This document shows, piece by piece, positions 4,999-64,000 of a DNA stretch of 64,000 nt. Within the stretch, counting starts at the first letter, position 1, and each line of letters starts with the position of its first letter. The stretch comes from an uncultured Ruminococcus sp. GTDB taxonomy: Bacteria; Bacillota; Clostridia; Lachnospirales; Lachnospiraceae. The translations under genes and the position numbers were made by a program. The stretch covers positions 847 to 64,846 of the forward strand of contig CAMMBV010000016.1 of assembly GCA_946494335.1 (NCBI GenBank), written 5' to 3'. The notes beneath the pieces were generated by a model. It worked only from the letters and a program-made list of their open reading frames with translations. It made no database searches and had not been told where the DNA came from.

Positions 4999-5748
4999 AT
5001 GAGCAAGATATCAATTAAAAATATGGATTTATATTATGGGAACTTCCATGCGCTTAAGGACGTGAACCTGGAAATTCAGGAGAAGGAAATCACGGCGTTC
5101 ATCGGTCCTTCCGGATGTGGAAAATCTACTCTTTTAAAATCACTGAACCGGATGAATGATCTGGTGCCGGGATGCAAGATTACAGGAGAGATCTCCCTGG
5201 ACGGTGAAAATATTTACGGAAATATGAATGTAAATATGCTTCGCAAGCGTGTGGGAATGGTGTTCCAGAAACCGAATCCATTTCCCATGAGTATTTACGA
5301 TAATATTGCCTACGGCCCAAGGACTCACGGCATCCGTTCCAGAAAAAAACTGGATGAGATCGTGGAACGCTCTTTAAGAGACGCGGCCATCTGGGATGAA
5401 GTGAAGGACAGACTGAAAAAAAGCGCGCTGGGTATGTCCGGCGGCCAGCAGCAGCGTCTCTGTATCGCCAGAGCCCTGGCGGTACAGCCGGAGGTTCTGC
5501 TGATGGATGAACCTACATCTGCGCTGGATCCCATCTCCACCTCCAAAATCGAGGAACTGGCGATGGAGCTGAAGAAAAATTATACTATTGTCATGGTTAC
5601 GCATAATATGCAGCAGGCGGTTCGTGTCTCCGACAAAACAGCGTTCTTCCTGCTGGGTGAAGTGATTGAATACGACGAGACAGAGACGCTGTTTTCTGTG
5701 CCGAAGGATAAACGGACGGAAGATTATATTACAGGAAGGTTTGGATGA
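4999..5748 (+). CDS. pstB: Phosphate import ATP-binding protein PstB
   Basis: Walker [10 protein letters not shown], signature [13 protein letters not shown], Walker B LLMDEP. Start taken as ATG 4999 (MSKISIKN); the track's TTG at 4981 overlaps pstA. Confidence 0.9.
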
Positions 5749-8975: not shown

Positions 8976-11886
<2,911 letters not shown>

Positions 11887-11900
11887 ATATAAAGTTTAGA

Positions 11901-11929
11901 TTGAAATTGCCGCCTGTGTGTGGTAAAAT
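11901..11929 (+). promoter_or_regulatory. Candidate promoter of secG-rnr-smpB
   Basis: TTGAAA, a 17-nt spacer, then TGg-TAAAAT (extended -10). Confidence 0.55.
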
Positions 11930-11962: not shown

Positions 11963-12199
11963 GTGGATATCTTAAAAATTATTGTTACAATTTTATTTGT
12001 AATTGATTGTATAGGACTGACAATTGTAGTGTTGATGCAGGAAGGAAAAAGTCAGGGGCTGGGAACCATCGGCGGTATGTCGGATTCATACTGGGGCCAG
12101 AACAAAGGCCGTTCCATGGAAGGAACGCTGGTGAAGGGTACCAAGGTTATGGCTGTTCTTTTTATTATACTGGCTGTTGTGCTGAATATTAATTTTTAA
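11963..12199 (+). CDS. secG: Preprotein translocase subunit SecG
   Basis: Two-TM small protein with MQEGKSQGLG. I prefer GTG 11963 because AGGAGG lies 7 nt upstream. The track's ATG at 11939 has no SD and sits about at the predicted TSS. Confidence 0.75.
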   Translation: MDILKIIVTILFVIDCIGLTIVVLMQEGKSQGLGTIGGMSDSYWGQNKGRSMEGTLVKGTKVMAVLFIILAVVLNINF

Positions 12200-14956: not shown

Positions 14957-15294
14957 GGGGCAGTACCGGTTTCGACGGGGGTTTTGAAGATGGAGAAGCT
15001 ATCCGCAGGCGATGCGTTAACTCGCAAACCTAAATTTAAACGCAGACGAAAACGTAGCGTTAGCAGCCTAGTTGCTGCTCGTCAGCCTTGATGCACTCAC
15101 ACATTGAGAATCTGGCGTCGACTTTGTGAGAAACGATATGGACAAAGCTTTGCGTTCATAGGCGTATTATGAGGCTACCAAAACCGTCAGGATGTCTGTT
15201 TCCGGGCGGCAGAGGGAATGAAAAATAACAGACTATGATAGTAGAAGTACATGGGAGAGACTTTCGGACACGGGTTCAACTCCCGTCTGCTCCA
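14957..15294 (+). ncRNA. ssrA: tmRNA (SsrA)
   Basis: The 5' GGGGCAG pairs with the 3' CTGCTCC, including the G3:U wobble. GGTTCAACTCCCG forms the T-arm. The tag ORF GCA GAC GAA AAC GTA GCG TTA GCA GCC TAG (15042-15071) encodes ADENVALAA-stop. CCA is not fully encoded, and the ends are good to about +/-2 nt. Confidence 0.9.
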
Positions 15295-15302
15295 GTGAAA
15301 AG

Positions 15303-34768: not shown

Positions 34769-34847
34769 TACAGGCAGGAGGGTATGGCCTATAATGAAAG
34801 GAGAAGCGAATATAGAAGCAATGAAATCATTAAAAGACTTGACTTTA
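34769..34847 (+). pseudogene. Third, truncated copy of the Rpn-repeat promoter and first ~14 codons
   Basis: TACAGGCAGGAGGG..CCTATAATGAAAGGAGAAG..GAAGCAATGAAATCATTAAAAGACTTGACTTTA matches 36878-36955 and 47204-47281. The start codon is ATA instead of ATG, and homology stops after codon ~14. Confidence 0.7.
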
Positions 34848-34958
34848 GATGAATACTGATAAGGAAGTATCACAAGTAAACGAGTGCCTTTGGTAAAAAC
34901 GGCTCCTTTTTGGTAAGAATTCAGATATGATAATTCTTATCGAAAAGGAGTATTTTTT

Positions 34959-35111
34959 ATGGCAATAGCAAGGAAACAAATCCGACAGATTATCTCAGAA
35001 AACAACATCAATAGTGTTGCAGATGTGAGTGTTCCGGGGCTTCGTGGTTCCTCCGCATTTTTTGGTATTTATCTATTAGGACGATACATGAGTTTTGCTT
35101 CTAATAACTGA
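34959..35111 (+). pseudogene. IS256-family transposase N-terminal remnant
   Basis: MAIARKQIRQIISENNINSVADV resembles the IS256-type N-terminus (..IRQ.I.EN.I.S..D.). The frame then degenerates and stops after 50 codons. Confidence 0.45.
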
Positions 35112-35280
35112 CGGCTACATCGACCATACATTCATAGGCAGCTGAATGCCCGCCCATATAGCCCTTTTTGAGCAAATGACAATACACATCTTTTCTGCTC
35201 ACACCTGCGTTCAGCTCCTTTGCGATATCATCGTAAAATTACTCCATGCCGCTCCTAAGCCTCAGGCATTTTTTTACCGC

Positions 35281-35804
35281 TTTCCACAAGAGTCTGGACA
35301 AGAGGCTGCTTATAGTGCTTCCAGTAAGGCAATGCTGCTTACCTATTGGAATATAGGCAAACGAATTGTAGAACAGGAACTATTGGTATATGAAAGAGGC
35401 GATTGACGAGAGCTGGAGTTCAAGAACGTTAGACCGTAATATTAGTACGCAATAATGAAGATACCTATTTAGAGGGAGATTTAGAGTCCTCTATTCTTTC
35501 ACATATTAGAGATTTTTTGATGGAACTGGAAAGAGGATTTGCCTTTGTGGCTCGTCAACAGCACATTGCAACGGAAACCTCGGATTACTATCTTGATCTC
35601 GTTTTTTATAATATTGAACTTAAGTGCTATGTCCTAATCGATTTGAAGATGGGCAAAATTACTCATCAAGACGTGGGACAGATTGACATGTATGATGATT
35701 TAAAGCGAGGGCAGGGAGATAACCCTACCATTGGGATTCTGCTGTGTTCAGAAACAGATGAGGATATTGCGCTGCGAAAGCATGTGGGCGAGAATGAAAT
35801 CTGA
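35281..35804 (+). pseudogene. DUF1016/YhcG PD-(D/E)XK nuclease pseudogene (internally deleted and frameshifted)
   Basis: Three fragments in different frames. (1) MLLTYWNIGKRIVEQE. (2) ESWSSRTLDRNISTQ-stop-stop. (3) DLESSILSHIRDFLMELERGFAFVARQQHI...DLVFYNIELKCYVLIDLKMGKITHQDVGQ...DNPTIGILLC. Confidence 0.7.
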
Positions 35805-35991
35805 ATTGCTGTATGACCGTTATGATACGGATAAAAAGACTACGGATGAATTCAGGACGATCATCTGGAGATATTTCATCAGCTACTGGAATAACCTGAG
35901 AATTTGTGCCGCCAATGGAGGTTTACTTCCGATGCTCAAACGACAGCAATGCTATGATTCACTGAAAGCGGCAGCATAGGATACAAAATCC

Positions 35992-36285
35992 TTGAGGAAA
36001 ATATGTCAACTAATCTTGAGAAGACCAAACCGCCGTTACGAGAAGCACGACGGGGACCCGGCTGTACGCCGTAGGTACGGCAGGGCGTGGAAACGAATCC
36101 GTGACCGCTATGCATCAAGACATCCTTTTTGTGAGGAGTGCCAAAGGAAAGGACTGCTGCGCCCCGTGGAGGAGGTGCATCACAAGATGCCTTTATCCGA
36201 GAGAGACACACACGATGAGAGCAACCTGGTTTCCCTTTGCAAAGAATGTCATGCGAGAATCCATGCGGAGCGTGGCGACCGCTGA
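35992..36285 (+). CDS. Phage-type HNH endonuclease, probably 5'-truncated
   Basis: RYEKHDGDPAVRRRYGRAWKRIRDRY..HPFCEECQRKG...VHHK.PLSE..THDESNLVSLCKECHARIHAERG. The usual N-terminal Cys-rich segment is missing or out of frame (MSTNLEKTKPP.. lies in another frame). Confidence 0.6.
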   Translation: MRKICQLILRRPNRRYEKHDGDPAVRRRYGRAWKRIRDRYASRHPFCEECQRKGLLRPVEEVHHKMPLSERDTHDESNLVSLCKECHARIHAERGDR

Positions 36286-36293
36286 CACAACAA

Positions 36294-36322
36294 AAGCCAT
36301 CCCACTTAGGATGAGATGGCTT
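36294..36322 (+). terminator. Hairpin after the HNH remnant
   Basis: 8-bp perfect stem AAGCCATC / GATGGCTT followed by TGCTTT. Confidence 0.4.
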
Positions 36323-36399
36323 TGCTTTAGGTTTGGTGGGCAAGTATCCACTTCAATAGCCCGGAAGAAGGAATCTCTCCTAGGGATGATTCTTAACCA

Positions 36400-36604
36400 G
36401 ACCAAAGCAGAGACGGGACGCTTACTCGTGAATCTGGAATTGATAAAGGCAGGCTATCCGCCGATTGATATTAAATTTGCAGATAGGATTGCGTATTACA
36501 ATGCTTTTGGCGAGTATCATATAAAACATAATTTGGGAGCGATGGAAAAACTATTTGCAGGGTATGTGAATGAAAGGCTGGACAGTTATTTGGCAATGTT
36601 GTAG
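36400..36604 (+). pseudogene. Fic-family protein, C-terminal fragment
   Basis: ..TGRLLVNLELIKAGYPPIDIK..R..YY.A is the tail end of the HPFxDGNGRxxRLL Fic motif plus the downstream helix. The catalytic His and the N-terminal two thirds are absent. Confidence 0.6.
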
Positions 36605-36751
36605 AGGAGTGGGCAAATAATAAAGGTAGAAATTAATGAAGAAGTGTACCATCAGGCAGAGCAGATTTTGGCATTACCAAAGTGGATCTTGGAAGGAATT
36701 TGATTTCGGCCAGCTCCAGAGGAAGAACATGTACAGTCACTGAAAAACATA

Positions 36752-36780
36752 TTGCCAATTAGAAGTATGCATGGTACAAT
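36752..36780 (+). promoter_or_regulatory. Distal candidate promoter (P1) of Rpn copy A
   Basis: TTGCCA, a 17-nt spacer, then TGg-TACAAT. The predicted TSS (~36787) coincides with the first base of the high-identity repeat. Confidence 0.45.
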
Positions 36781-36786
36781 GGTATA

Positions 36787-36870
36787 AATCTCACTGCAGC
36801 AGTTCTGCTGCAAAATCCCAAACTATTTTAAATTCCAAGGGCCGCCCGAGGTCATACGGCGGATTGTTTT
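36787..36870 (+). ncRNA. Conserved leader / candidate small RNA upstream of Rpn copy A
   Basis: Hairpin GCAGCAG-TTC-TGCTGC, then hairpin CCGCC-N11-GGCGG followed by ATTGTTTT (terminator-like). The same layout is conserved at 47108-47196. Confidence 0.3.
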
Positions 36871-36874
36871 ATCC

Positions 36875-36903
36875 TTTACAGGCAGGAGGGTGTGTCCTAT
36901 AAT
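36875..36903 (+). promoter_or_regulatory. Proximal promoter (P2) of Rpn copy A
   Basis: TTTACA, a 17-nt spacer, then TATAAT (consensus -10), 17 nt upstream of the ATG. Confidence 0.6.
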
Positions 36904-36919
36904 GAAAGGAGAAGTGCAT

Positions 36920-37750
36920 ATGGAAGCAATGAAATCATTAAAAGACTTGACTTTATTGGACCGCTTTTTGTTTGCCGAGGTAATGGAAGACAGAAAAAGC
37001 CTGGAGGCCGTGCTGGAAATTATCCTGGGGCGTGAGGTGCTGTTGGACTGTCTGCCGCAGACGGAAAAAGAAAGAAGACAGTCGCCGCTGTACCGAAATA
37101 TCCGGCTGGATGTGTGGGGAGAGGATGAAGGATCCGTATTTGATCTGGAAGTTCAGAAAAAGAATACCAGAAACTTAAGCAAAAGAAGTCGGTTTTATCA
37201 GGGGTTGATAGACGGGAAACTGTTAAAACCAGGAGAGATTGACTTCGACGGAATGAGGGATTCTTATATCATTGTCATAGCACCTTTTGATCTGTTTGGG
37301 GAAGGAAGATACCAGTATACGTTTCGGATGCGGTGTGATGAAAACCCGAAGACAGCGCTGGAAGACGGCGCGGTGCGGATTTTTCTGAACACCCATGGAT
37401 CAAATCCGGAGGAGGTAAGTCCGGAGCTGGTGGAGCTTCTGAAGTTTATGGAGCACACCAACGATAAACCAAAAGGAGGTTATCAAAGCGGGCGGATTCG
37501 CGACCTGGACAGGCGGATCGGGAAGATCAAGAGCAGTGAAGAGATAGGGGTGAAATATATGCAGGCATGGGAAGAGAGAGAACTGGAAAAACGGGAAGCA
37601 CGCCAGGAGGGCGTGGAGATCGGAAAGAAGGAGATTCTGAGAAACCAGATCAGCAAGAAGCTTCAGAAAGGGAAAACCGTCAAAGAGATAGCAGAGGAAC
37701 TGGAAGAAACGCCGGAGGTTGTTGAAAGGCTGATAAACGAATTAAAATAA
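36920..37750 (+). CDS. Rpn-family PD-(D/E)XK nuclease / putative transposase, copy A
   Basis: 276 aa from MEAMKSLKDL. The nuclease core is RLDVWGEDEGSVFDLEVQKK (D...D/E-x-K type, TIGR01784-like). SD AAAGGAG. Confidence 0.75.
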   Translation: MEAMKSLKDLTLLDRFLFAEVMEDRKSLEAVLEIILGREVLLDCLPQTEKERRQSPLYRNIRLDVWGEDEGSVFDLEVQKKNTRNLSKRSRFYQGLIDGKLLKPGEIDFDGMRDSYIIVIAPFDLFGEGRYQYTFRMRCDENPKTALEDGAVRIFLNTHGSNPEEVSPELVELLKFMEHTNDKPKGGYQSGRIRDLDRRIGKIKSSEEIGVKYMQAWEERELEKREARQEGVEIGKKEILRNQISKKLQKGKTVKEIAEELEETPEVVERLINELK

Positions 37751-37860
37751 TGTTTGGCATCCGGTATTTTTAAACGGAATAAAATATTTCTGGCGGGGAT
37801 AGTTAATCTGCGGCCAATCCTACTATATAATCGTTATAAAAAGAAAGGGTGGTTGCAGAA

Positions 37861-38880
37861 ATGAACACAAACCGAAAACTAGTTACTACGCTGTTTCAGA
37901 AAATAATTGGACAGAAGAAAGCCAGATGCCGCTGCAGCAAGGATGAGACAGTAAAGAGTATTGCGCAGAGCTGGCTGGAAAATTCCAGCTTTCATCTGAA
38001 AGAATCGTCTTATATAAGATACCGGAACCTTGTCTGGAACCATATCCTGCCAGAGCTGGGGGAAATGAAGTTAAGTGAAGTGACGACGGAACGGGTGCGG
38101 GATCTGATCAGGCAGCTGCTGCGCAAAGGCCGGAAAGACGGCAGGGGAGGTCTTTCTGAGAAAATGGTAAAAGATATATTGGCTTTGCTGAAAACCATAT
38201 GCAGATATGCCGTTCAAAAAGGGTTTGAAGTGCCGTGCTGTTTTGAATTGGTGAAAATGAAATGTACGGAAGGACAGGTCCAGATTCTTGACAGAGAGGA
38301 GCGGACGGCGCTGGAAAGATTTCTGCTTCAGGATGACAGCCTGATAAAAACCGGTATTTTACTCAGTCTGTATATGGGACTGCGTCTGGGAGAGGTGTGT
38401 GCGCTGAAAAAAAGGCATATCATATATAAAGAAGAAATACTTCAGGTGCGTTCTACGATGCAGCGGATCCAGCAGCTGGAATGTACGGATGGGAGAAAAA
38501 CAAAAGTGATTGTCACTGCTCCTAAAAGCAGCAGTTCGGTCAGAGACATTCCTATCCCGCTGTTTTTGATGGAAAGACTGGAGCGGCTTCGGTTTGCACC
38601 GGAGGATTCTTACATATTAACGGGAAAGCCGGAACGTTTTATTGAGCCGAGAACCATGGAGAATAATTTTAAAAGATTTTTGAGAGAGTGCAGAATAACG
38701 GAAATTAATTATCATGCGCTTCGTCATACGTTTGCAACCCATTGCATAGAGAATGGTTTTGATGTAAAAACCCTCAGTGAAATCCTGGGGCATGCAAATG
38801 TGAATATCACATTAAACAGATATGTTCATTCTTCTATGGAAAGGAAAAAGGAAAATATGAAAAAACTTCAAGTTGGATGA
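37861..38880 (+). CDS. Tyrosine site-specific integrase
   Basis: N-terminal SAM-like domain. Catalytic residues appear intact: R in YMGLRLGE, HALRHTF (H-x-x-R), LGH, and Y in NRYVH. Confidence 0.85.
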   Translation: MNTNRKLVTTLFQKIIGQKKARCRCSKDETVKSIAQSWLENSSFHLKESSYIRYRNLVWNHILPELGEMKLSEVTTERVRDLIRQLLRKGRKDGRGGLSEKMVKDILALLKTICRYAVQKGFEVPCCFELVKMKCTEGQVQILDREERTALERFLLQDDSLIKTGILLSLYMGLRLGEVCALKKRHIIYKEEILQVRSTMQRIQQLECTDGRKTKVIVTAPKSSSSVRDIPIPLFLMERLERLRFAPEDSYILTGKPERFIEPRTMENNFKRFLRECRITEINYHALRHTFATHCIENGFDVKTLSEILGHANVNITLNRYVHSSMERKKENMKKLQVG

Positions 38881-38894
38881 AAATTAATTTATTC

Positions 38895-38924
38895 TTTACA
38901 GAAACAGAAAGTATGTTCTGTAAT
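38895..38924 (+). promoter_or_regulatory. Candidate promoter of the jet operon with an embedded inverted repeat
   Basis: TTTACA, an 18-nt spacer, then TGTAAT. ACAGAA...TTCTGT spans the spacer. Confidence 0.45.
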
Positions 38925-38966
38925 GGAAAAGGAAGCAAAGGGTGAAAAGCCAAGAGGAGCGGCATT

Positions 38967-40445
38967 ATGATAATAGAAGAAACACTGAGAAAGCCGATGT
39001 TGGAAGCGAAGTATCTGAATGTGGAAAACACAGACAGGTACCGTCCAATTATCAGGCTTTTTTATTTGCAGTATGAGAAGCTGAAATACTGGATGTACCA
39101 GGAGGAGGTATATGAAGAGCTGAAAGAAGATCCTGGATTTGCGGATTATACGATGGAGCAGTGTCATCAGGATCTGACAGCTCTGGCGGAATGGGGGAAT
39201 CTGCTGAAGATTCAGGATACGAAAAAAGTTGCAAATATTGATGAGTTCAAGAACAGGAAGCTGCGGTATCAGCTGTCGGAGGCCACGGTGGAAATTGAAA
39301 GAATGGTCATCCGGGTGGAAAAACTGTATATAGAAAGCTCATCGCTGGAGCCGACGCTTCTGGAGCGGATTCGCATAAACCTGGGAAAAGCCGGGCAGAT
39401 GCCGGATGAGGAAATAGATATTATTTATGGGTGGTGGAACGATCTCAATAATGATTTTGTCCGCCTGAATCAGAATTATCAGGATTACATGCGGGAGCTG
39501 AACAGCATCAAAGCGGAAGAGATGATGAAGACGAAGGAATTTCTTGTGTTCAAGGATCGTCTCATTGAATATCTGAGAAATTTTGTCCGCAGTATTCAGG
39601 TGCATGTGACGGCCATCGAACAGCTGCTTAAGGGGCTGGACCGTCAGGTGATACGGGAATTGCTGGATCGGATTGCGGAATATGAATGTTCCATTCCAAG
39701 ACTGGATATGGAAGTGCCCAAAGAACAGATTTTTGATAAGGTTAAGGGACGATGGAAAAGTCTGACGGACTGGTTTGCTGGGGATGATGAAAGGGAGTCG
39801 GAGGCTTTGCGAGTGTTTGACGTGACCAACGAGATCATCCGGAAGATCACCCGGTATGCGGCAAGAATCAGTGAAATGAGCAACAGCGGCTCCAACCGCA
39901 GGGAAGAATATTATAAGATTGCCGTTATGTTTTCAAAATGTCGGGATATCAATGAAGCGCACAGACTGGCGGCGATGGTTTTCGGTATGGAAAGGCCGTT
40001 TCATTTGAAAGGGCTGGATGAAAGAAAGACGGAGAGTATCAACAGCGGCGTTTTTGACGAAGAGCCTTCTGTTGTCACTGTAATGCCCAGAGTCAGAACC
40101 TACAAAGATAAAGCCCACAGAACGGATATTGTCGATCATTCCAGGGAAAAAGAAGAGATGCGGCTTGCCGCCATACAAAGACTTGAGGATGAGAGAAAGC
40201 TGTTAAGAAGTTATATCCGGGACAATCGGATTGATTTTAAAAATCTGTCCGGGATAGAGCCTCACGTCCGGGATGTTTTTCTCTCCTGGCTATCCAAAGC
40301 GCTGGAGCAGAAGGATCTGAGGGGAAAAACACAGGACGGGCAGAAGTATTATATAGAAAACGGGGATACCAAAGAAAGATGCATGCTGAAATCATCGGAC
40401 GGCGTGCTGGAGATGCCCGCATACGTGATAAAATTTGAGGAGTGA
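38967..40445 (+). CDS. jetA: JetA-like protein, type II Wadjet (TIGR02677/DUF2397 family)
   Basis: 492 aa. The N-terminus AKYLNVENTDRYRPIIRLFY and the length fit TIGR02677. It is the first gene of a coupled four-gene operon. Confidence 0.75.
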   Translation: MIIEETLRKPMLEAKYLNVENTDRYRPIIRLFYLQYEKLKYWMYQEEVYEELKEDPGFADYTMEQCHQDLTALAEWGNLLKIQDTKKVANIDEFKNRKLRYQLSEATVEIERMVIRVEKLYIESSSLEPTLLERIRINLGKAGQMPDEEIDIIYGWWNDLNNDFVRLNQNYQDYMRELNSIKAEEMMKTKEFLVFKDRLIEYLRNFVRSIQVHVTAIEQLLKGLDRQVIRELLDRIAEYECSIPRLDMEVPKEQIFDKVKGRWKSLTDWFAGDDERESEALRVFDVTNEIIRKITRYAARISEMSNSGSNRREEYYKIAVMFSKCRDINEAHRLAAMVFGMERPFHLKGLDERKTESINSGVFDEEPSVVTVMPRVRTYKDKAHRTDIVDHSREKEEMRLAAIQRLEDERKLLRSYIRDNRIDFKNLSGIEPHVRDVFLSWLSKALEQKDLRGKTQDGQKYYIENGDTKERCMLKSSDGVLEMPAYVIKFEE

Positions 40446-40447
40446 AA

Positions 40448-41590
40448 ATGAACGCACTGGAAATACTGCTGGAAAAACGCTGGATTTTAAAAAGCAAAAA
40501 CCGGGAGCTTTATTATCAGATGAAGGATGAGGTGGGAACTGTCAAAAAGTTTCTGCTGGAAAAACTGGGATATGCGGTTATTGTAAATCCTTATCTGATC
40601 AAGGTGGAAAAAACGCCCGCCAGGCCGGAGAACTGGATGGGGATCATGGAGTTTAAAAACCAGATCGAGTACGTATTTTTCTGCATGGTGCTGATGTTTC
40701 TGGAAGAAAAGGAAACGGAAGAACAGTTTGTGCTGTCGGAACTTACGGAATATATTCAGGCAGAATACAAGGAGGAGCAGATTGACTGGACGGTTTATCG
40801 GTACAGACGCCATTTGATCCGGGTGATGAAATACTGTGAAAGCAGCGGCCTTATAAATGTCAATGACGGCACGGAGGAGAATTTTGCCAGGAATGATACC
40901 GGCGAAGTTCTTTATGAAAATACGGGAGCTTCCCGGTATTTTATGAAAAATTTCACCCGTGATATTATGGAATTTTCCGCTTTGGAGGATTTTGAAAAAG
41001 AGGACTGGATCGATGTGGACGAAGACCGGGGAATTGTCAGGCGTCAGAGAGTGTACCGGCAGCTTTTGATGACCATGGGGCTGGAACGGGAACCGGATAC
41101 GGAAGAGGACTTTGTCTATGTGAAGAATTACCGCAATATGATAGCGGATGAGCTTTCGGGGATGCTGGACTGTGAACTTCATGTGCATCGTACCGGTGCA
41201 TTTCTTGTTTTGGGAGAGAACTGCCGGATGGGCAGGCGCTTTCCGGAGGAAAATACGCTGTCGGATATTGTGCTGCTGGTAAATGAGATCATCCAGGAGA
41301 GAATCCGAAAGGGTGAAATTGCAGTGGGGGCCCAGGAGCGTATCCTTGTTCCAAAAGAATACTTTACCGGTATTCTGGAGGAATGCAAAGAAAGGTACGG
41401 ACAGGGAATGATCAAGACTTATCGGGAAATGACCACCCGGGAATTCTGTCAGATAACGGCGGATTATATGATGGAACTGGGATTTATATGTGAATACCAG
41501 GGTGATATACAGATAAAAAGAGCGGCGGGGAAGATTATGGGAAGATATCCCCGGGATTTTTTAAAGAACGGAGAAGAAGATGAACAGTAA
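40448..41590 (+). CDS. jetB: JetB-like protein, type II Wadjet (TIGR02678/DUF2398 family)
   Basis: 380 aa. ATG lies 2 nt after the jetA stop, with GAGGAG 6 nt upstream. Size and position fit TIGR02678. Confidence 0.7.
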   Translation: MNALEILLEKRWILKSKNRELYYQMKDEVGTVKKFLLEKLGYAVIVNPYLIKVEKTPARPENWMGIMEFKNQIEYVFFCMVLMFLEEKETEEQFVLSELTEYIQAEYKEEQIDWTVYRYRRHLIRVMKYCESSGLINVNDGTEENFARNDTGEVLYENTGASRYFMKNFTRDIMEFSALEDFEKEDWIDVDEDRGIVRRQRVYRQLLMTMGLEREPDTEEDFVYVKNYRNMIADELSGMLDCELHVHRTGAFLVLGENCRMGRRFPEENTLSDIVLLVNEIIQERIRKGEIAVGAQERILVPKEYFTGILEECKERYGQGMIKTYREMTTREFCQITADYMMELGFICEYQGDIQIKRAAGKIMGRYPRDFLKNGEEDEQ

Positions 41591-44500
41591 ATGGCAGTTA
41601 AACCGGATCGGGCTGGTGGATTTCTGGTACTACGATGAAGAAGAGTTATATTTTCGGGACGGCAGGATGCTGCTTCGGGGGGCCAACGGTTCCGGAAAAA
41701 CCGTTACCATGCAGAGCTTTATTCCCCTTCTTTTGGACGGCAATATGCGGCCGGAAAGACTGGATACCTTTGGGTCCAAGGCCAGAAAGATGGAAAATTA
41801 TCTTCTGGATGAGGAGGATGAAAGGGAGGAACGGACCGGGTATCTGTATATGGAACTGAAGCGGGAGAAAAGTGAAGAGTATCTCACCCTGGGGATGGGC
41901 ATCCGTGCAAGGAAGAACAAAAAGCTGGATTCCTGGTATTTCTGTGTGACGGATGGACGCAGGATCGGCCATGACCTTTTCCTTTACCGGGAGGGCACAG
42001 GCAAAGTGGCCTGCACCATGCGGGAGCTGAAAAACCGGGTAGGCGACGGCGGTCAGGTGATGGAAAGTCAGAAGGAATACGCCCGGTGCGTAAACCGTCT
42101 TCTCTTTGGTTTTGAGTCTCAGGAGGAATACAAGGAGCTGATGGACCTTCTGATACAGCTGAGGACGCCCAAGCTTTCCAAAGATTTCAAACCAACGGTT
42201 ATCAATGAGATTCTCAGCGGTTCCCTGCAGACTCTGTCGGAGGATGACCTGCGGCCCATGTCGGAAGCCATAGAAAACATGGACAGCCTGAAAACAAATC
42301 TGGATGTTTTAAAAGACAGTATTCAGGCGGCGGAACAGATAGAAAGGGTCTATGATCAGTACAATGAAATTGTGCTGTATGACAAGGCTCTTATGTTTAC
42401 CAATGCGGTAAAAATGCATCAGGAGGTCAGCGCCAGGGGAGAAGAGCTGGAAAAAGAAGCCGGCCGCTGCCGCAGGGAACACACAGAGGAAGAAGAAAGA
42501 TACCGGCAGCTTAAGGCGGAGGAGAAAATCCTTCAGGAAGAAAGAGCATCTCTGTCTGACAGTGATGCAGCCAGACTGAAGGAGGAAGAGCTTAAGCTGC
42601 GCGCCATTCTAAAAGAGCAGGAAAATACCATATCGGAGAAGAGGCGGCAGGAAGAGGAGAAAAAGGAAAAGTATCTGGAGGCGAAAGTGCGCAGAGACGC
42701 TGCGGCGGAAAAAAACCAACAGATATGGGACGAGATAGAGGATAGCATGAATGAAATGGAGGACACCCTTGGCGACGTTCCCTTCGATGATTTTTCATTT
42801 TTAAAGGCGGAGCTTACGCAACACAGGGAAAAATCCTTCCCTTTTGATTCCCATATCAGGCTTTTGAAAGAATATGTCCGGAAAGTAAAAGAAGGCCGGG
42901 ATATTCTGGAAAAGGAGAGGGTCTGCCAGGAGAAATACAGCCGTCTGCTGCAGGAACTGGACGGATTTCAGGATAAAAAAAGCGCCATGGAGCGGGAAGT
43001 CCTTCAGTATGAAAATCTGCTCCATGAAACGAAGCAGGAGCTGATAGAAAAGATCTGTCAGTGGGCCAGGGGAAACAGCCAGCTTTGTCTTCCACCGGAG
43101 CTTTTGCAGAATATGATAAGAAGAATTGAATCTTACGGTTCGGATACGGATTACTGGGAAATAAAGAATCTTGCAAAACCTATGTTTGATGAAGCGGAAA
43201 AGGAGATCCTGCTTAAAATCCGGGAAAAAGAGTGGGAGCTGACGGAAAAGAGGAAGGAAAAAGAGGGACTGATCAAAGAAATAGAGGAGTGGAAAAATCG
43301 AAAGGAGCCGGAACCGGAAAGGGACGCTGCGGTACTGGAGAACAGAAAACGTCTGGATGAAAAGGGGATCCCTTATCTTACCTTTTATCAGGCGGTGGAT
43401 TTTGATTCACGGCTGGATGAGGGAAAAAGGGCATGGCTGGAGGAAACCCTTTTTCATATGGGAATTTTGGACGCACTGATTGTTCCGGCCCAGTACAGAG
43501 AGCAGGTTATGGATGTGGACAAAGGCAGATGCGACCGGTATCTGTTTACCGACGCTCCTTATGTAAAAAATAATCTGACTGATCTTCTGGATATCGAGAA
43601 CGGAGAAAATGATATACTGCTGTATCAGAATGTATCGGCAGTGCTGTCCGCTGTCAGCTGCAATGCTTCGGAAACGCGGCGGAATGCCGGCGGTACCTGG
43701 ATGGATGAAAAGGGCAGTTATGGGATCGGCATAGTGGAAGGTACGGTGACGGGAGAATATAAACCCCGTTTTATCGGGGCAGCCGCCAGAGAGCAGTATC
43801 GTCTGGAGCAAATGCAAAAGCTGGAAGAGACACTTCTTTTGATAGAGGAGGAAGAAAAGGCCCTGGAGACCAGGATTTTCGCTTTAACAGAGCAAGAAAA
43901 GAATCTGGAAAATGAGTGGGAAACCTTTCCAAAGGATCAGGATCTGAAAGTGGCGGCGCGGGAGTTTGAAAAGCGGGAAGAAAGGCTGGAGGAGCTCAAT
44001 GACAGAATCCGGGAGCAGAAAAAACTGGTTGAGGCAGAACGGGTATCCCTGGATGAAATAAGGCAGCAGGTGCAGAAAATCTGCCGCAGCGCATGGCTGA
44101 TGCCGCGGCTGGATGTGTTTGAAAAGGCGCTGGAATCGCTGCAGACTTATCGGGAGTATCTGTCGGCGGTTCAGGTTGCCCATGGGAATTATATCAACGG
44201 CATAAGGTATGTGGAAAGCCAGGATGAGTATCTGGAAGAGACCGACCGGGATCTGGATCAAATCCGATATGACCTGGGACGGGCGGTAAACAGCCAGAGG
44301 GAAAGCCAGAGCAGTCTTAATTCCGTTTTGGAACGGCTCAAACTGACGGACTATGAGAAAATAAAGGAAAGGCTGGAATACTGCATCGGCCGTTTGGCTC
44401 TGCTGCCGGGGGAAATAGAAGAGTCCGTACGGCTTATGACTACGCTGCGGGATAAAGAAGCTTCGCTTCTGGAGAAACAGCGGGAAAATGAAGTGGAGCT

Positions 44501-45671
44501 GGGAAAGATTCTGGACAGAAAGGAAAGACTTTCCCGGGTGTTTGCCAGTGAATATGATCTGGGTTATGTGAAGGAATGCGCTGAGGATACAAAGGAAAGT
44601 CAGGAGCAGGCGAAGAAAATATGTTCTCTGCTGGCCGGCCGGTTCGGAAGCCGGAAACAGAGCGATCTTCTGGGAAGCCTTCAGGAGATGTTTCATAAAA
44701 ACCGCGGATATCTGCTGGAATATCAGATCGCTCTGAAAACCCTGTTTGAAAAACTGGATGAAGAGACGTCCTTCCATGAGATCAGTGTGAAAAGAATCGA
44801 TATCACGGCGAAATACCGAGGTGCCACGGTAAAATTTAAGGAGCTTCTTTCGGCTATGCGGGAGGACGCCCGGATACAGACACAGCTGCTCAGCGAAAAA
44901 GACAGAGAGCTGTTTGAGGATATCTTTGCCAATACCATCAGTAAAAAGATTCGCAGCAGAATTCAGGCCAGCAGGCGCTGGGTGGAGAAAATGAATGTTC
45001 TCATGGAATCCATGCAGACCTCCAGCGGTCTGACTTTAAGTCTGCGATGGAAAAACAAGAGCGCGGAAAAAGAGGAGCAGCTGGACACGAAAGAGCTGGT
45101 AGCGCTGCTGCAGAAGGATGTGGAGATTATGCGTCCGGAAGAAGCACAGCAGCTGGCCGGGCATTTCCGCTCCAAAATCGATGAGGCCAGGAAGCGGGCG
45201 GAGGACACCGGAGAGGTCCGGTCCTTCCACGGCATTATGAAGGAAGTGCTGGACTACCGGCAGTGGTTTGAATTTCAGCTGGAATGTCAGAAAACCGGTG
45301 AGCGAAAGAAAGAACTGACGGATCGGGTATTTTTTACTTTCAGCGGCGGAGAAAAGGCCATGGCCATGTACGTGCCCCTGTTCTCTGCTGTGGCGGCGAA
45401 GTACGGGGGAGCCCGTGACGACGCCCCCAGGCTGATATCCCTTGACGAAGCCTTTGCCGGTGTGGATGAGATGAATATCCGGGATATGTTCCGGCTGATG
45501 GTAGAATTTGAATTTAACTTTATTATCAATTCTCAGATTCTGTGGGGAGACTACGACACGGTTCCCGGGCTTGCCATCTATCAGCTGGTACGTCCGGAAA
45601 ATGTCAGGTATGTTACGGTGATACGCTATTTGTGGAACGGAAGCGTCAGGAGTATGGTAAATGGTTCATAA
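41580..45671 (+). CDS. jetC: JetC-like SMC-family ATPase, type II Wadjet (TIGR02680 family)
   Basis: 1363 aa. Walker A GANGSGKT (residues 34-41), a very long E/K/R/L-rich coiled-coil-like middle, signature FSGGEKA (1254-1260), Walker B LISLDEAF (D1289, E1290). It overlaps jetB by 11 nt. Confidence 0.85.
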   Translation: MNSKWQLNRIGLVDFWYYDEEELYFRDGRMLLRGANGSGKTVTMQSFIPLLLDGNMRPERLDTFGSKARKMENYLLDEEDEREERTGYLYMELKREKSEEYLTLGMGIRARKNKKLDSWYFCVTDGRRIGHDLFLYREGTGKVACTMRELKNRVGDGGQVMESQKEYARCVNRLLFGFESQEEYKELMDLLIQLRTPKLSKDFKPTVINEILSGSLQTLSEDDLRPMSEAIENMDSLKTNLDVLKDSIQAAEQIERVYDQYNEIVLYDKALMFTNAVKMHQEVSARGEELEKEAGRCRREHTEEEERYRQLKAEEKILQEERASLSDSDAARLKEEELKLRAILKEQENTISEKRRQEEEKKEKYLEAKVRRDAAAEKNQQIWDEIEDSMNEMEDTLGDVPFDDFSFLKAELTQHREKSFPFDSHIRLLKEYVRKVKEGRDILEKERVCQEKYSRLLQELDGFQDKKSAMEREVLQYENLLHETKQELIEKICQWARGNSQLCLPPELLQNMIRRIESYGSDTDYWEIKNLAKPMFDEAEKEILLKIREKEWELTEKRKEKEGLIKEIEEWKNRKEPEPERDAAVLENRKRLDEKGIPYLTFYQAVDFDSRLDEGKRAWLEETLFHMGILDALIVPAQYREQVMDVDKGRCDRYLFTDAPYVKNNLTDLLDIENGENDILLYQNVSAVLSAVSCNASETRRNAGGTWMDEKGSYGIGIVEGTVTGEYKPRFIGAAAREQYRLEQMQKLEETLLLIEEEEKALETRIFALTEQEKNLENEWETFPKDQDLKVAAREFEKREERLEELNDRIREQKKLVEAERVSLDEIRQQVQKICRSAWLMPRLDVFEKALESLQTYREYLSAVQVAHGNYINGIRYVESQDEYLEETDRDLDQIRYDLGRAVNSQRESQSSLNSVLERLKLTDYEKIKERLEYCIGRLALLPGEIEESVRLMTTLRDKEASLLEKQRENEVELGKILDRKERLSRVFASEYDLGYVKECAEDTKESQEQAKKICSLLAGRFGSRKQSDLLGSLQEMFHKNRGYLLEYQIALKTLFEKLDEETSFHEISVKRIDITAKYRGATVKFKELLSAMREDARIQTQLLSEKDRELFEDIFANTISKKIRSRIQASRRWVEKMNVLMESMQTSSGLTLSLRWKNKSAEKEEQLDTKELVALLQKDVEIMRPEEAQQLAGHFRSKIDEARKRAEDTGEVRSFHGIMKEVLDYRQWFEFQLECQKTGERKKELTDRVFFTFSGGEKAMAMYVPLFSAVAAKYGGARDDAPRLISLDEAFAGVDEMNIRDMFRLMVEFEFNFIINSQILWGDYDTVPGLAIYQLVRPENVRYVTVIRYLWNGSVRSMVNGS

Positions 45672-46998
45672 GGATCAGGAAATAAAACAATGCGCGGCAT
45701 ATTTCAAAGAGCGTCCGGTGTATGAAAAGCTTTTTCAAAAATTCCGGAAAAAGTATGAAAGTCTGGGGCATTTCGGCGGGACAGTGGTGCTGTCCGGACT
45801 GACAGGGGAAGAAAAGAACCAGCTGGGCGGTTTCCTGCAGAAAGATTATACGGAGCACACAAAGATAGCTGTTTCGGCCTCTCTGATGGAAAAGGCGCTT
45901 GCTTCCAGCAGGTTTTCTGATCTTTCCTGGGAAGAGATCCTGGAGACATATTTCGGAGAGAAGCTGACGGTCAAAAAAGAAGCAAAGCGGCAGCAGGAGA
46001 AGGAAAAGGAGGCATTCTTTTCTGATATACTTAACAACAGTCCGGACGGTCCGGGAAAATCCTGGCTTATTCGTGTGTTGAAAGAGCGGGAAGAAGGCTT
46101 TTCCTGGATGATGCAGCAGTACAGAGAAAGACCCGGTGAGCTTTCAGGGATTGTAAAAAATGTGCTGACAGCCATACCGCTTCTGCCGGTATTTTCAGAA
46201 GGGAAGGAAAAAATGCTGCTGGCAGTTTTTGCAGCAGAGGTTACCGGAAATCCCCATTATTTTGATGAGGGAAGCAGAGGCGAGGCGCTTCTATTTGCGT
46301 TCATAAAAAGTTATCTGAACATGGAAGTAAAGGAGGGCTTATCCCGGGCGGAATACAAGAAGAAACTGTTTTTTGAGGCGGGAATTTTAAAGGACGAGCT
46401 GTCCAGCGATGTGCTGGCATACGGAATACGGGCAGTGAGAAAGGACGGGAGTGTTCATCCGGGTGTGGAAGGCTTTTTCAGGTGCCGGGAACCGGTGAAA
46501 CTGACCCTTAAGACACTGGGAAATATCGACAGGATCTTTTCTGGGAAGGAAGAAAATGAAAATGGCCCGGGCAAAGTGTACGTGGTGGAAAATCCGGCAG
46601 TGTTTTCCGCGCTGACACAGAAGTATCCGGACAGGGCACTGATCTGCGGAAACGGCCAGCTGAAGCTGGCTGTGCTCCTGCTTATGGATAAACTGAAAGA
46701 AAACAGTGTGTTTTATTATGCCGGTGATTTTGATCCTGAAGGAATGATGATAGCCCAGAAACTGAAAATCCGGTACGGTGAGCGGCTGAATCTGTGGAAT
46801 TACAGAGAAAAGCTTTACAGAAGGTATCTGTCAGATGTGATTCTTGATAATACGCGTATAAAAAAGCTGGACAAAATAACGATTCCTGAACTTCAGGAAG
46901 TGAAAGAAGCAATGATAAAGGAAAAGCGCGCAGCCTATCAGGAGACAATGTTGGAGGAATACCAGAAAAATATAGAAGGAAACAATGAGTTGTTATAA
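45661..46998 (+). CDS. jetD: JetD-like Toprim nuclease subunit, type II Wadjet (TIGR02679; DUF3323 + DUF2399)
   Basis: 445 aa. Toprim-like Glu in YVVENPAVF (E310) and DxD in YAGDFDPEG (D356/D358). It overlaps jetC by 11 nt. Confidence 0.8.
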   Translation: MVHKDQEIKQCAAYFKERPVYEKLFQKFRKKYESLGHFGGTVVLSGLTGEEKNQLGGFLQKDYTEHTKIAVSASLMEKALASSRFSDLSWEEILETYFGEKLTVKKEAKRQQEKEKEAFFSDILNNSPDGPGKSWLIRVLKEREEGFSWMMQQYRERPGELSGIVKNVLTAIPLLPVFSEGKEKMLLAVFAAEVTGNPHYFDEGSRGEALLFAFIKSYLNMEVKEGLSRAEYKKKLFFEAGILKDELSSDVLAYGIRAVRKDGSVHPGVEGFFRCREPVKLTLKTLGNIDRIFSGKEENENGPGKVYVVENPAVFSALTQKYPDRALICGNGQLKLAVLLLMDKLKENSVFYYAGDFDPEGMMIAQKLKIRYGERLNLWNYREKLYRRYLSDVILDNTRIKKLDKITIPELQEVKEAMIKEKRAAYQETMLEEYQKNIEGNNELL

Positions 46999-47012
46999 GT
47001 GACCGGAGTATT

Positions 47013-47046
47013 CTGGCTGCATACATTTATCAATGTATGCAGCCAG
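47013..47046 (+). terminator. Hairpin closing the jet operon
   Basis: Perfect 13-bp stem CTGGCTGCATACA / TGTATGCAGCCAG with an 8-nt loop, 15 nt past the jetD stop. There is no strong U-run. Confidence 0.55.
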
Positions 47047-47072
47047 AGCTTGTTAAGCAATTTATATAGATA

Positions 47073-47107: not shown

Positions 47108-47196
47108 AATCTCACCGCAGCAGTTCTGCTGCAAAATCCCAATCTTATTTTAAATTTAACCAGGGACCGCCCGGGGCCCATATGGCGGATGGTTTT
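47108..47196 (+). ncRNA. Conserved leader / candidate small RNA upstream of Rpn copy B
   Basis: Same GCAGCAG-TTC-TGCTGC hairpin, and CCGCC-N12-GGCGG followed by ATGGTTTTG. The loops differ from copy A while the stems are kept. Confidence 0.3.
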
Positions 47197-47200
47197 GTCC

Positions 47201-47229
47201 TTTACAGGCAGAAAGGCGTGTCCTATAAT
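47201..47229 (+). promoter_or_regulatory. Proximal promoter (P2) of Rpn copy B
   Basis: TTTACA, a 17-nt spacer, then TATAAT, the same layout as copy A. Confidence 0.6.
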
Positions 47230-47245
47230 GAAAGGAGAAGTGCAT

Positions 47246-48100
47246 ATGGAAGCAATGAAATCATTAAAAGACTTGACTTTATTGGACCGCTTTTTGTTTG
47301 CCGAGGTAATGGAAGACAGAAAAAGCCTGGAGGCCGTGCTGGAAATTATCCTGGGGCGTGAGGTGCTGTTGAACTGTCTTCCGCAGACGGAAAAAGAAAA
47401 ACGGCAGTCACCGCTGTACCGGAATATCCGTCTGGATGTGTGGGGCGAGGATGAGAGATCCGTATTTGATCTGGAAGTTCAGAAAAAGAATACCAGAAAC
47501 TTAAGCAGAAGGAGCCGGTTCTACCAGGGGCTGATAGACGGGAAGCTGTTAAAACCGGGAGAAGTTGATTTTGATCAGATGAAGGATTCCTATATTATCA
47601 TCATAGCGCCTTTTGACCTGTTTGGGGAAGGGAGATACCGATATACGTTCCGGATGCGATGTGACGAAAACCCAAAGACAGCGCTGGAAGACGGCGCGGT
47701 GCGGATTTTTCTGAACACCCATGGATCAAATCCGGAGGAGGTGAGTCCGGAGCTGGTGGAGCTTCTGAGGTTTATGGAGCATACCAACGATAAACCCGAG
47801 GGAGGGTATCAAAGCGAGCGGATCCGTGATCTGGACAGGCGGATCGGAAAGATCAAGAGCAGTGAAGAGATAGGGGTGAAATATATGCAGGAATGGGAAG
47901 AGAGAGAGCTGGAAAAGCGGGAAGCGCACCGAGAGGGCAGGGAGATTGGAAAACAGGAGGGTGTGGAGATCGGAAAGCAGGAGATTCTGAGAAGCCAGAT
48001 CAGCAAGAAGCTGCAGAAAGGAAAAACTGTCAAAGAGATAGCAGAGGAACTGGAAGAGACGCCGGAGGTTGTTGAAAGACTGATAAAAGAATTAAAATAA
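47246..48100 (+). CDS. Rpn-family PD-(D/E)XK nuclease / putative transposase, copy B
   Basis: 284 aa from MEAMKSLKDL. The same DLEVQKK core, differing from copy A by roughly 15-20 substitutions plus an 8-residue insertion. Confidence 0.75.
   Translation: MEAMKSLKDLTLLDRFLFAEVMEDRKSLEAVLEIILGREVLLNCLPQTEKEKRQSPLYRNIRLDVWGEDERSVFDLEVQKKNTRNLSRRSRFYQGLIDGKLLKPGEVDFDQMKDSYIIIIAPFDLFGEGRYRYTFRMRCDENPKTALEDGAVRIFLNTHGSNPEEVSPELVELLRFMEHTNDKPEGGYQSERIRDLDRRIGKIKSSEEIGVKYMQEWEERELEKREAHREGREIGKQEGVEIGKQEILRSQISKKLQKGKTVKEIAEELEETPEVVERLIKELK
47933..47980 (+). repeat. 24-nt tandem duplication inside Rpn copy B (EGREIGKQ / EGVEIGKQ)
   Basis: GAGGGCAGGGAGATTGGAAAACAG followed by GAGGGTGTGGAGATCGGAAAGCAG (19 of 24 identical). 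Copy A has a single unit. Confidence 0.85.
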
Positions 48101-48104
48101 TGTT

Positions 48105-62762: not shown

Positions 62763-64000
62763 GTTCGCCCGCCATGGGCGGACTCTAACGGGTGAAAGTC
62801 TCGAGTGCGCGTAGGCAACGACGAAGCACATAGCTGAACAGCAAGGGTGCCCATCGTGAGGTGGGATCTGAAGGAAGCTGTAGGCAAACCCTTGGCCTGA
62901 CGGACAGAAACCACATATAAGGCTGGGAAATATGGGTAAGTCTGCCAAAAGAGATGAAGCCCAAAAGGTTGCTGGAAGTACCAGTAGATGTGGCAGGTGG
63001 ATGAGGGGAAAGAGTCCGCACCTTAAGCGGGGAGGTCTCACAGGCGGTCTCATTAGCTGTAGTAACAACGAACTGTGAGAAGTCAGCAGAGCCTATAGTA
63101 GTGAAGAAGTCCCTGTAATGGGGATGGAGCGAAGGGGCGAACAATCAATCAGTTGAAGTAGGTTCCACTTCGTAGCCGGAGCAACGTCTGTCGATAACGT
63201 CAAAGACGGCAAAGGCAAAAGGGGCAGAAAGGAAACAACGCATGAACACAAGTAGTCTTATGGAGCAGATATTGAGCAAGGAGAATCTCAATGCGGCGTA
63301 TCTGCAAGTCGTCAGAAATAAAGGTGCGGCAGGTGTAGACGGTATGGAATGCACCGAGCTGAAAGATTACCTTTCGGAAAACGGCGAAACAATCAGGGAA
63401 CAGCTGAGGACAAGAAAATACAAACCTCAGCCAGTTAGGCGAGTAGAGATACCAAAGCCCGAAGGTGGTGAGAGAAACCTTGGAGTACCTACGGTCACAG
63501 ACCGTTTTGTACAACAGGCAATCGCACAGGTGCTGATTCCTATTTTTGAGGAGCAGTTCCATAACCACAGCTACGGATTCCGACCGAACCGCTGCGCACA
63601 GCAGGCAATCATCAAAGCACTTGAAATGATGAATGATGGATACAGCTGGATAGTCGATATCGACCTTGCAAAGTTCTTTGACACGGTAGACCACGATAAG
63701 CTGATGACCATTTTTGGTCGAACAATTAAAGATGGAGATGTCATATCCATCGTCAGAAAGTTCCTGGTCAGCGGAATCATGGTAGACAACGAGTATGAGG
63801 ATTCCATCATAGGAACCCCGCAGGGAGGGAACATATCTCCGTTGCTTGCGAACATCATGCTCAATGAATTGGATAAGGAGCTGGAAGCAAGGGGACTTGA
63901 CTTTGTGAGATATGCAGATGATTGCATTATCATGGTTGGAAGTAAACAGGCGGCAGAACGAGTGATGAAAAGCGTAACGAGATTTCTTGAGAATAAGCTT
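62763..64000 (+). mobile_element. Group IIC (class C) intron, 5' part: domains I-III plus the start of the DIV ORF; it continues past the window
   Basis: The 5' end GTTCGCCCGCCATGGGCGGACTCTAACGGGTGAAAGTC... parallels the Oceanobacillus iheyensis IIC intron (GUGUGCCCGGCAUGGGUGCAGUCUAUAGGGUGAGAGUC), recalled from memory. Further shared strings are GCAAGGGTG, ATCTGAAGGAAGC, GGCAAACC, CGGGGAGGTCT and GAAGTCAGCAGA. An RT ORF follows. Confidence 0.8.
63242..64000 (+). CDS. Group II intron reverse transcriptase/maturase (N-terminal 253 codons, open at the window end)
   Basis: This ORF is not in the supplied track because it has no stop in the window. ATG at 63242. Motifs LNAAYLQVVRNKGAAGVDG, VRRVEIPKPEGGERNLGVPTVTDRFVQQA, YGFRPNR, TPQGGNISPLLANI and RYADD (63911-63922). 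Confidence 0.9.
   Translation, partial: MNTSSLMEQILSKENLNAAYLQVVRNKGAAGVDGMECTELKDYLSENGETIREQLRTRKYKPQPVRRVEIPKPEGGERNLGVPTVTDRFVQQAIAQVLIPIFEEQFHNHSYGFRPNRCAQQAIIKALEMMNDGYSWIVDIDLAKFFDTVDHDKLMTIFGRTIKDGDVISIVRKFLVSGIMVDNEYEDSIIGTPQGGNISPLLANIMLNELDKELEARGLDFVRYADDCIIMVGSKQAAERVMKSVTRFLENKL

Follow-up and report, generated by a model that had tools for sequence, protein, structure and literature searches.

Wadjet systems defend against plasmids rather than phages. The closest described relative of the locus reported here is the type II Wadjet of Neobacillus vireti LMG 21834 (nvJET-II), which was reconstituted and assayed, and whose structure was solved by cryo-electron microscopy (PDB 9QE0/9QE1; bioRxiv 10.1101/2025.03.10.642339). 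We analyzed a jetABCD operon located at positions 38967 to 46998, on the + strand, of a 64,000-nucleotide (nt) stretch of contig CAMMBV010000016.1 from an uncultured Ruminococcus sp. of the Lachnospiraceae; this whole stretch is called the window below. The operon very probably encodes a complete and active type II Wadjet with an nvJET-II-like mechanism, situated on an accessory segment of approximately 10.3 kb that varies between strains.

Cleavage by nvJET-II requires ATP, JetABC, JetD, and Mn2+, and only circular DNA is cut (bioRxiv 10.1101/2025.03.10.642339). Its JetD cuts at random positions and leaves short 5′ overhangs; linear DNA and circles larger than approximately 50 kb escape (bioRxiv 10.1101/2025.03.10.642339). 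nvJET-II restricts plasmids in vivo, and JetABC and JetD from different Wadjet types are not interchangeable (bioRxiv 10.1101/2025.03.10.642339). An earlier reading of the window, made from its letters (the sequence-only reading), had stated that no type II system from a Clostridia commensal was known to have been dissected biochemically; with the reconstitution of the N. vireti system, from a member of the Bacillota, in 2025, that statement is out of date. In Clostridium cellulovorans, deletion of a native Wadjet operon, jetABCD, produced a conjugation phenotype (PMC12287153).

The window operon and nvJET-II agree in their four genes and in the order of these genes, and the sizes of the products are alike (JetA, 492 amino acids (aa) in the window and 500 in nvJET-II; JetB, 380 and 389; JetC, 1363 and 1371). 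Homology extends from end to end in JetA, JetB, and JetC, the predicted arm and hinge of the window JetC are closest to 9QE0, and both JetD proteins have a Toprim/CAP-like fold, which in the window protein is predicted. In contrast, the sequences are distant, and the activity of the window copy is predicted. Its host is a Lachnospiraceae-like anaerobe of the gut rather than a relative of Bacillus, and its operon adjoins a tyrosine recombinase gene between repeats of the Rpn family.

Type I Wadjets, such as JetABCD of E. coli GF4-3 and P. aeruginosa PA14 and MksBEFG of C. glutamicum, likewise combine an SMC loop-extruding sensor with a Toprim nuclease, and the window JetD model matches the type I structures 7TIL and 8B7F. 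They differ from type II in their shorter JetC and in having a KITE homodimer where type II has a tandem KITE, as well as in a donut-shaped hinge and the lack of a need for Mn2+ (bioRxiv 10.1101/2025.03.10.642339). MukBEF and MksBEF share the SMC, kleisin, and KITE subunits, MukB is found among the fold matches of the window JetC, and the hinge and dimer geometry of type II are MukBEF-like (bioRxiv 10.1101/2025.03.10.642339). Unlike the window system, they have no nuclease subunit and serve chromosomal housekeeping rather than forming a strain-variable accessory.

Gene set and family assignment of the operon

The genes are arranged on a single strand in the order jetA-jetB-jetC-jetD, and no frameshift or internal stop codon was found in the four open reading frames (ORFs). 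The genes and the catalytic motifs of JetC and JetD are as follows.

38967–40445, + strand: jetA, 492 aa, type II kleisin (DUF2397/TIGR02677)
40448–41590, + strand: jetB, 380 aa from ATG, tandem-KITE subunit (DUF2398/TIGR02678)
41580–45671, + strand: jetC, 1363 aa, SMC-family ATPase (TIGR02680)
45661–46998, + strand: jetD, 445 aa, CAP-like and Toprim nuclease (DUF3323 and DUF2399)
41679–41702, + strand: JetC Walker A, GANGSGKT, aa 34–41, with K40
45339–45359, + strand: JetC ABC signature, FSGGEKA, aa 1254–1260
45432–45455, + strand: JetC Walker B, LISLDEAF, aa 1285–1292, with D1289/E1290 at nt 45444–45449
46588–46590, + strand: JetD Toprim glutamate E310, in YVVENP, aa 307–312
46726–46734, + strand: JetD Toprim DxD, D356/D358, in AGDFDPEG, aa 354–361

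The ORF list bears out the four coupled + strand genes of 492, 380, 1363, and 445 aa described by the sequence-only reading, and the junctions are as it gave them. The jetA stop codon TGA (40443–40445) is followed by AA and then by the jetB ATG at 40448, leaving a 2-nt gap, with GAGGAG at 40438–40443, 5 nt 5′ of this ATG. jetB and jetC overlap by 11 nt (41580–41590), as do jetC and jetD (45661–45671). The longest ORF of jetB opens at an alternative start, GTG at 40442, and would encode 382 aa; public gene calls give 380 aa. A script located every quoted motif of JetC and JetD at exactly the nucleotides claimed.

JetA matched PF09660 (DUF2397; 4e-155, 518 bits), TIGR02677 (342 bits, cut-off 166), and the PADLOC profile JetA2 (3e-203). 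In a sequence search, residues 5–492 aligned to residues 7–497 of N. vireti JetA (PDB 9QE0_E) with an E value of 4e-78. JetB matched PF09661 (DUF2398; 2e-106, 357 bits), TIGR02678 (174 bits, cut-off 125), and PADLOC JetB2 (9e-144). Its residues 3–377 aligned to 16–388 of N. vireti JetB, a solved tandem KITE (9QE0_D, E 9e-69). In its length of 380 aa and by this end-to-end alignment, JetB corresponds to the single tandem-KITE subunit typical of type II, which in that type comprises four winged-helix domains.

JetC matched TIGR02680 (826 bits, cut-off 463), PADLOC JetC2 (1567 bits), and PF13558 (SbcC_Walker_B; 1e-24), and its residues 3–1360 aligned to 5–1357 of 9QE0_A with an E value of 6e-210. 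Walker A, the signature, and Walker B were each at least 90% conserved among 30 JetC homologues. The middle of the protein is composed of 15% E, 12% L, 9% K, and 8% R. A structure was predicted for residues 190–1240 with 30 homologues; in this model, four long helices run out to a mixed alpha/beta module of approximately 150 residues, the hinge, and four long helices run back. The best match of the model in the PDB was JetC of 9QE0 (Foldseek, E 8e-37, 1052 columns); condensin, MukB, and Smc5/6 came next. The model thus agrees with the SMC/Rad50-like JetC with long arms that the sequence-only reading had proposed, and it contains both the long coiled-coil arms and the hinge whose absence would have spoken against that proposal; the best match is the solved type II JetC.

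JetD matched PF11796 (DUF3323, 3e-51), PF09664 (DUF2399, 1e-25), PADLOC JetD2 (3e-146), and weakly JetD_C (27 bits, cut-off 22). The Toprim-like end with E310 and the DxD motif lies where it was claimed to lie, and E310, N311, P312, G355, D356, D358, P359, E360, and G361 are the same in all 33 homologues that were aligned. An AF2 model of JetD had a mean pLDDT of 87.5. When it was compared with the PDB by Foldseek, Topo VI-A (1D3Y, E 4e-6), Spo11 (8URU), C. glutamicum MksG (8B7F), and P. aeruginosa JetD (7TIL) were each matched with a probability of 1.00. As modeled, JetD has the Topo VI-A/Spo11/JetD fold.

The assignment of all four predicted proteins to type II Wadjet families is thus supported. 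Among the PADLOC profiles, JetA2, JetB2, JetC2, and JetD2 win with E values from 1e-144 to 0, confirming the type that the sequence-only reading had named. The type I and III models scored far lower (JetC1, 87 bits; JetD1, E 2e-10; JetD3, 2e-7), and JetA and JetB matched no type I or type III profile. A type I or III Wadjet, Lamassu, and a plain MksBEF were ruled out by the profile scores and the presence of JetD.

Relatives of JetC are numerous (more than 2,600 at E <= 1e-50); leaving identical copies aside, the closest is 68% identical, and among GTDB species representatives, the best match was 66% identical over the full length. A scan of GTDB species genomes gave 72 loci, mostly from Lachnospiraceae (Blautia, Dorea, Mediterraneibacter, Merdimonas, Faecalimonas, Lacrimispora). 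Among approximately 70 Clostridia loci, all that were long enough to show the four genes had them in the order jetA-B-C-D. Relative to the window proteins, the type II systems of other Lachnospiraceae (Blautia, Dorea, Mediterraneibacter, [Ruminococcus] torques, and others) are 50–77% identical in JetA, 44–73% in JetB, 44–68% in JetC, and 31–61% in JetD. These loci are flanked by unrelated housekeeping genes, and no integrase or Rpn gene of the window type was found within 10 kb of the related systems (approximately 70 loci). The family is common in gut Clostridia, and the window copy is a moderately divergent member of it. An identical JetC occurs on 17 contigs from public assemblies, covering more than 20 sequencing runs. 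In a Blautia sp. metagenome-assembled genome (JBJENG010000013; L078, 9736–13018), a JetA fragment of 97 aa is followed by JetC from approximately residue 784 and by an intact JetD; this locus is a deleted type II remnant.

Flanking elements and the surrounding module

The elements next to the operon and the parts of the surrounding module are listed below.

37861–38880, + strand: tyrosine recombinase gene (int), 339 aa, ORF opening at GTG 37849; jetA follows directly
38895–38924, + strand: promoter-like element, also a palindrome, between int and jetA, TTTACA-N18-TGTAAT
approximately 47012–47047, + strand: hairpin 3′ of jetD, perfect stem, no T-tract
36787–37754, + strand: left direct repeat, with an Rpn-family (PDDEXK_2) gene at 36890–37750 (TIGR01784, 52 bits, equal to the cut-off)
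47108–48104, + strand: right direct repeat, with an Rpn-family gene at 47189–48100 (TIGR01784, 58.5 bits)
34769–36785, no strand assigned: strain-specific 2-kb segment of gene fragments, missing from the conspecific contigs L085 and L086

The sequence-only reading had given the operon its own promoter. The element is present at 38895–38924; its −10 hexamer, TGTAAT, lacks the conserved A at position 2, and it was therefore not listed by a consensus promoter scan. The element is also the palindrome TTTACAGAA-N12-TTCTGTAAT, which occurs once in the window, and it may serve as a promoter, as an operator, or as a site for a recombinase. Between the end of the integrase gene and jetA, both on the + strand, there are 86 nt and no terminator, and co-transcription of int and jetABCD is possible. 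With the poor −10 hexamer, the palindrome, and this arrangement taken together, a separate jetA promoter is unproven. The perfect hairpin after the last stop codon is stronger than the 13 bp claimed for it, with 14–16 perfect pairs, a folding energy of −30.6 kcal/mol, and a z score of −6.8. As it lacks a T-tract, it is absent from the terminator scan list and is not a canonical intrinsic terminator. An Rfam scan of the window gave nothing within or adjoining the operon.

int and jetABCD form a segment of approximately 10.3 kb between two paralogous Rpn-family genes, which in turn lie between panB upstream and glmS, glnA, rimP, nusA, and infB downstream. The left and right repeats are 89.5% identical over 998 columns. 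The repeat-bounded, integrase-linked module that had been read from the sequence is therefore borne out by the family match of the recombinase and by direct repeats of approximately 1 kb. The C-terminal 8-aa unit EG[RV]EIGKQ of the Rpn proteins is present once in the left copy, twice in the right, and approximately 1.5 times in the allele of the empty site described below. The copy-number variation recalls the variable repeats that are reported for the Rpn toxins of E. coli and for the antitoxins encoded within their genes (PMC10400941). A third, distant Rpn-family-like ORF is located at 189–1070 on the − strand; its TIGR01784 score of 23 bits is below the cut-off, and its last 70 aa are 40% identical to the left Rpn.

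Conspecific contigs were found by an exact look-up of PanB, and their flanks are 99.4–99.5% identical to the window. L086 carries panB, one hybrid Rpn gene (11062–11904), and glmS, which constitutes an empty site, with flanks 99.4% identical to the window. In L085, panB, Rpn, int, and jetABC are present without the additional 2.0 kb of the window (34770–36785). Most other conspecific contigs end inside the repeat, as expected where two repeat copies are present. The int-jetABCD segment has these features of an integrative genomic island: a recombinase at one end, flanking direct repeats, and presence or absence among conspecific strains. The base composition of the island does not stand out.

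In the Rpn allele of L086, the upstream region corresponds to the left repeat, the 3′ end and downstream flank correspond to the right repeat, and the middle is a fine mosaic of both. This pattern fits either insertion by crossover within the Rpn gene or deletion by recombination between the repeats. A breakpoint recurs at TACAGGCAG (34769, 36877, and 47203), in a setting of diverged repeats of approximately 1 kb and a mosaic empty allele. The recurrence is only suggestive of a site-specific core, which it could be. An att core was not definable from the three-way repeat alignment, as the empty allele is too mosaic. In the segment at 34769–36785, the first 79 bp duplicate the promoter and 5′ end of the Rpn gene. 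In our reading of the translations, the fragments of this segment resemble a YhcG/DUF1016-like nuclease, the end of an IS3-type transposase, an HNH endonuclease, and a Fic-like C-terminus; family searches of these fragments gave nothing significant. The locus has the look of a recombination hotspot, and the segment resembles what is left of a previous cassette there.

The Rpn genes are approximately 8% diverged between strains, compared with 0.5% for their flanks. When window positions 37861–45562 were compared with nt 12004–19705 of L085, the jet genes differed by 2.2% (dS approximately 0.085), the recombinase gene by 0.7% (dS 0.014), and the chromosomal flanks by 0.5%. The higher divergence of the jet genes means that the island is either a mosaic or older than its present context.

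The recombinase matched Phage_integrase (2e-22) and a SAM-like N-terminal domain, contains the catalytic R, HxxR, H, and Y, and is 339 aa long in public gene calls. Its nearest relatives (59–64% identical) lie at the edges of capsule/exopolysaccharide (EPS) loci, not beside Wadjet or Rpn genes, and a search of JGI metagenomes for further relatives gave one weak, uninformative match. The contig L096, which encodes a 64%-identical homologue, has two lox-like sites, TTTCGTAGAG-N7-CTCTACGAAA, at 5023–5051 and 5225–5253. Their spacers are mutually reverse-complementary, and the 173 bp enclosed by the two sites lie just upstream of a NusG-like gene and of an operon for polysaccharide. This arrangement has the anatomy of an invertible promoter and is a candidate inverton. 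A search for inverted repeats around int and jetA in the window gave only short weak pairs and the one palindrome at 38895–38924, with no inverted site pair. As there is no inverted pair and a single orientation is shared by all contigs, inverton control of jetABCD was rejected for the window.

These data leave two ways of viewing the role of the recombinase in the module. Its closest relatives lie beside capsule/EPS loci, the L096 homologue is followed by two sites bracketing 173 bp, the Rpn repeats, at approximately 1 kb and 90% identity, are sufficient for RecA-dependent recombination, and the empty-site allele mixes both repeats finely. All of this is consistent with a recombinase that is not the mobility enzyme of the island but a member or relic of a phase-variation clade, with homologous recombination between the Rpn repeats accounting for gain and loss of the segment. 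We regard this, for the module only, as possible but less likely than not. In contrast, the window has one palindromic candidate site and no inverted pair, the orientation is the same in all contigs, the recombinase accompanies jetABCD in every island-bearing contig that is long enough, and the recurrent TACAGGCAG breakpoint could be a site-specific core. A bolder notion is that int-jetABCD is a discrete defense cassette that the cell sheds and regains or switches; it is suggested by a recombinase clade that includes capsule-locus invertases and by the hypervariable Rpn (recombination-promoting nuclease) genes that flank the segment, and we consider it improbable. If it were true, with excision driven by the recombinase or Rpn, or action at 38895–38924, silencing Wadjet in a subpopulation, it would amount to a phase-variable gate on plasmid uptake in a gut commensal.

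Elsewhere in the window, two RNA elements were identified.

14957–15297, + strand: tmRNA gene, tag peptide ADENVALAA (Rfam)
62850–63137, + strand: group II intron domains D1–D4 (RF02001, 139 bits; RF01998, 37 bits), near the window end

Proposed mechanism and alternative readings

The present analysis shows the set of genes, the families of all four proteins, intact and conserved catalytic motifs, the predicted folds, and purifying selection. For the mechanism, we draw on the N. vireti homologue, from which loop extrusion, the way of cutting, the choice of substrate, and the need for a metal are inferred. JetA (kleisin), JetB (a single tandem KITE), and a JetC dimer would form motor units, and two JetA1B1C2 units would associate as a dimer. 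The JetABC complex would load on DNA and extrude loops with ATP. On a small circular DNA, such as a plasmid of up to tens of kb, extrusion would run to completion and the motors would stall. The stalled motors would license a JetD dimer (CAP-like and Toprim, with E310 and D356/D358) to make a sequence-independent cut, which is probably Mn2+-dependent. The linearized plasmid would then be degraded by host exonucleases, and the large chromosome and linear DNA would be spared.

That the system is probably functional had been proposed from its intact motifs. In agreement with this, the catalytic residues are conserved, the ORFs are uninterrupted, and the L085 and window alleles give a dN/dS of 0.08 for jetA and for 3.98 kb of jetC (approximately 5.4 kb in total). 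A dN/dS of approximately 0.08 between the two alleles indicates purifying selection and argues for a working system.

Several observations weigh against reading the operon as an nvJET-II-like active Wadjet. JetC is approximately 24% identical to nvJetC across the arms (Foldseek alignment), and at this identity the two systems may differ in such details as the largest plasmid that is cut, the metal needed, and the way in which JetD docks. The promoter and terminator assignments for jetABCD are weak. JetD scored 176 bits with TIGR02679, just below the curated cut-off of 196 bits; of the families that the sequence-only reading had expected, PF09660, PF09661, PF13558, PF11796, PF09664, and TIGR02677, TIGR02678, and TIGR02680 were matched, and TIGR02679 alone remained under its cut-off. 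As a sequence search of the PDB with JetD gave no match, solved relatives of this subunit were identified by fold. In every related locus (approximately 70 loci, L009–L084), JetD is also less conserved than the other three subunits; in L009, for example, JetD is 61% and JetA 76% identical to the window protein. The type II paper proposes that the nuclease and the domain by which it docks diversify rapidly (bioRxiv 10.1101/2025.03.10.642339), and the low conservation of JetD fits this proposal.

The operon could be a decaying or silent relic that looks intact and no longer restricts plasmids. It has no convincing promoter of its own, it lies beside a 2-kb graveyard of gene fragments, and a truncated type II remnant exists in the Blautia genome. 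Such a relic would hardly be expected to retain what is seen here: four full-length ORFs with their translational coupling, catalytic residues that are intact and invariant in the family, a dN/dS of approximately 0.08 over 5.4 kb between two alleles, and an identical JetC on 17 public contigs from more than 20 sequencing runs. We therefore consider decay highly improbable. The arms of JetC also match MukB and condensin, and the resting state and hinge of type II are MukBEF-like (bioRxiv 10.1101/2025.03.10.642339), as they would be if JetABC were mainly a chromosome organizer of the MksBEF/MukBEF kind with defense as a secondary role. This is extremely unlikely in view of the jetD nuclease gene, which is coupled to jetC through the 11 nt that the two genes share, the unrelated chromosomal positions of the operon in relatives, and its variation between strains, which makes it dispensable; moreover, the type II system that was tested restricts plasmids (bioRxiv 10.1101/2025.03.10.642339). 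A complete, probably active type II Wadjet on a strain-variable segment remains the preferred reading.

Implications for gut Lachnospiraceae

The window copy adds no new mechanism; its type is already characterized biochemically and structurally. What is new is the presence or absence, between strains, of a compact recombinase-linked type II segment between Rpn-family repeats, and the added value is modest. The locus shows a type II operon moving as a compact, recombinase-linked unit of approximately 10 kb. It also provides a natural pair within one species, with L086 empty and the window and L085 carrying the system. This pair could be used to ask if carriage of type II Wadjet lowers the load of small plasmids in a commensal. 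Since Wadjet targets plasmids, such a system bears on gene flow in the gut, including that of resistance genes, and on the genetic tractability of Lachnospiraceae.

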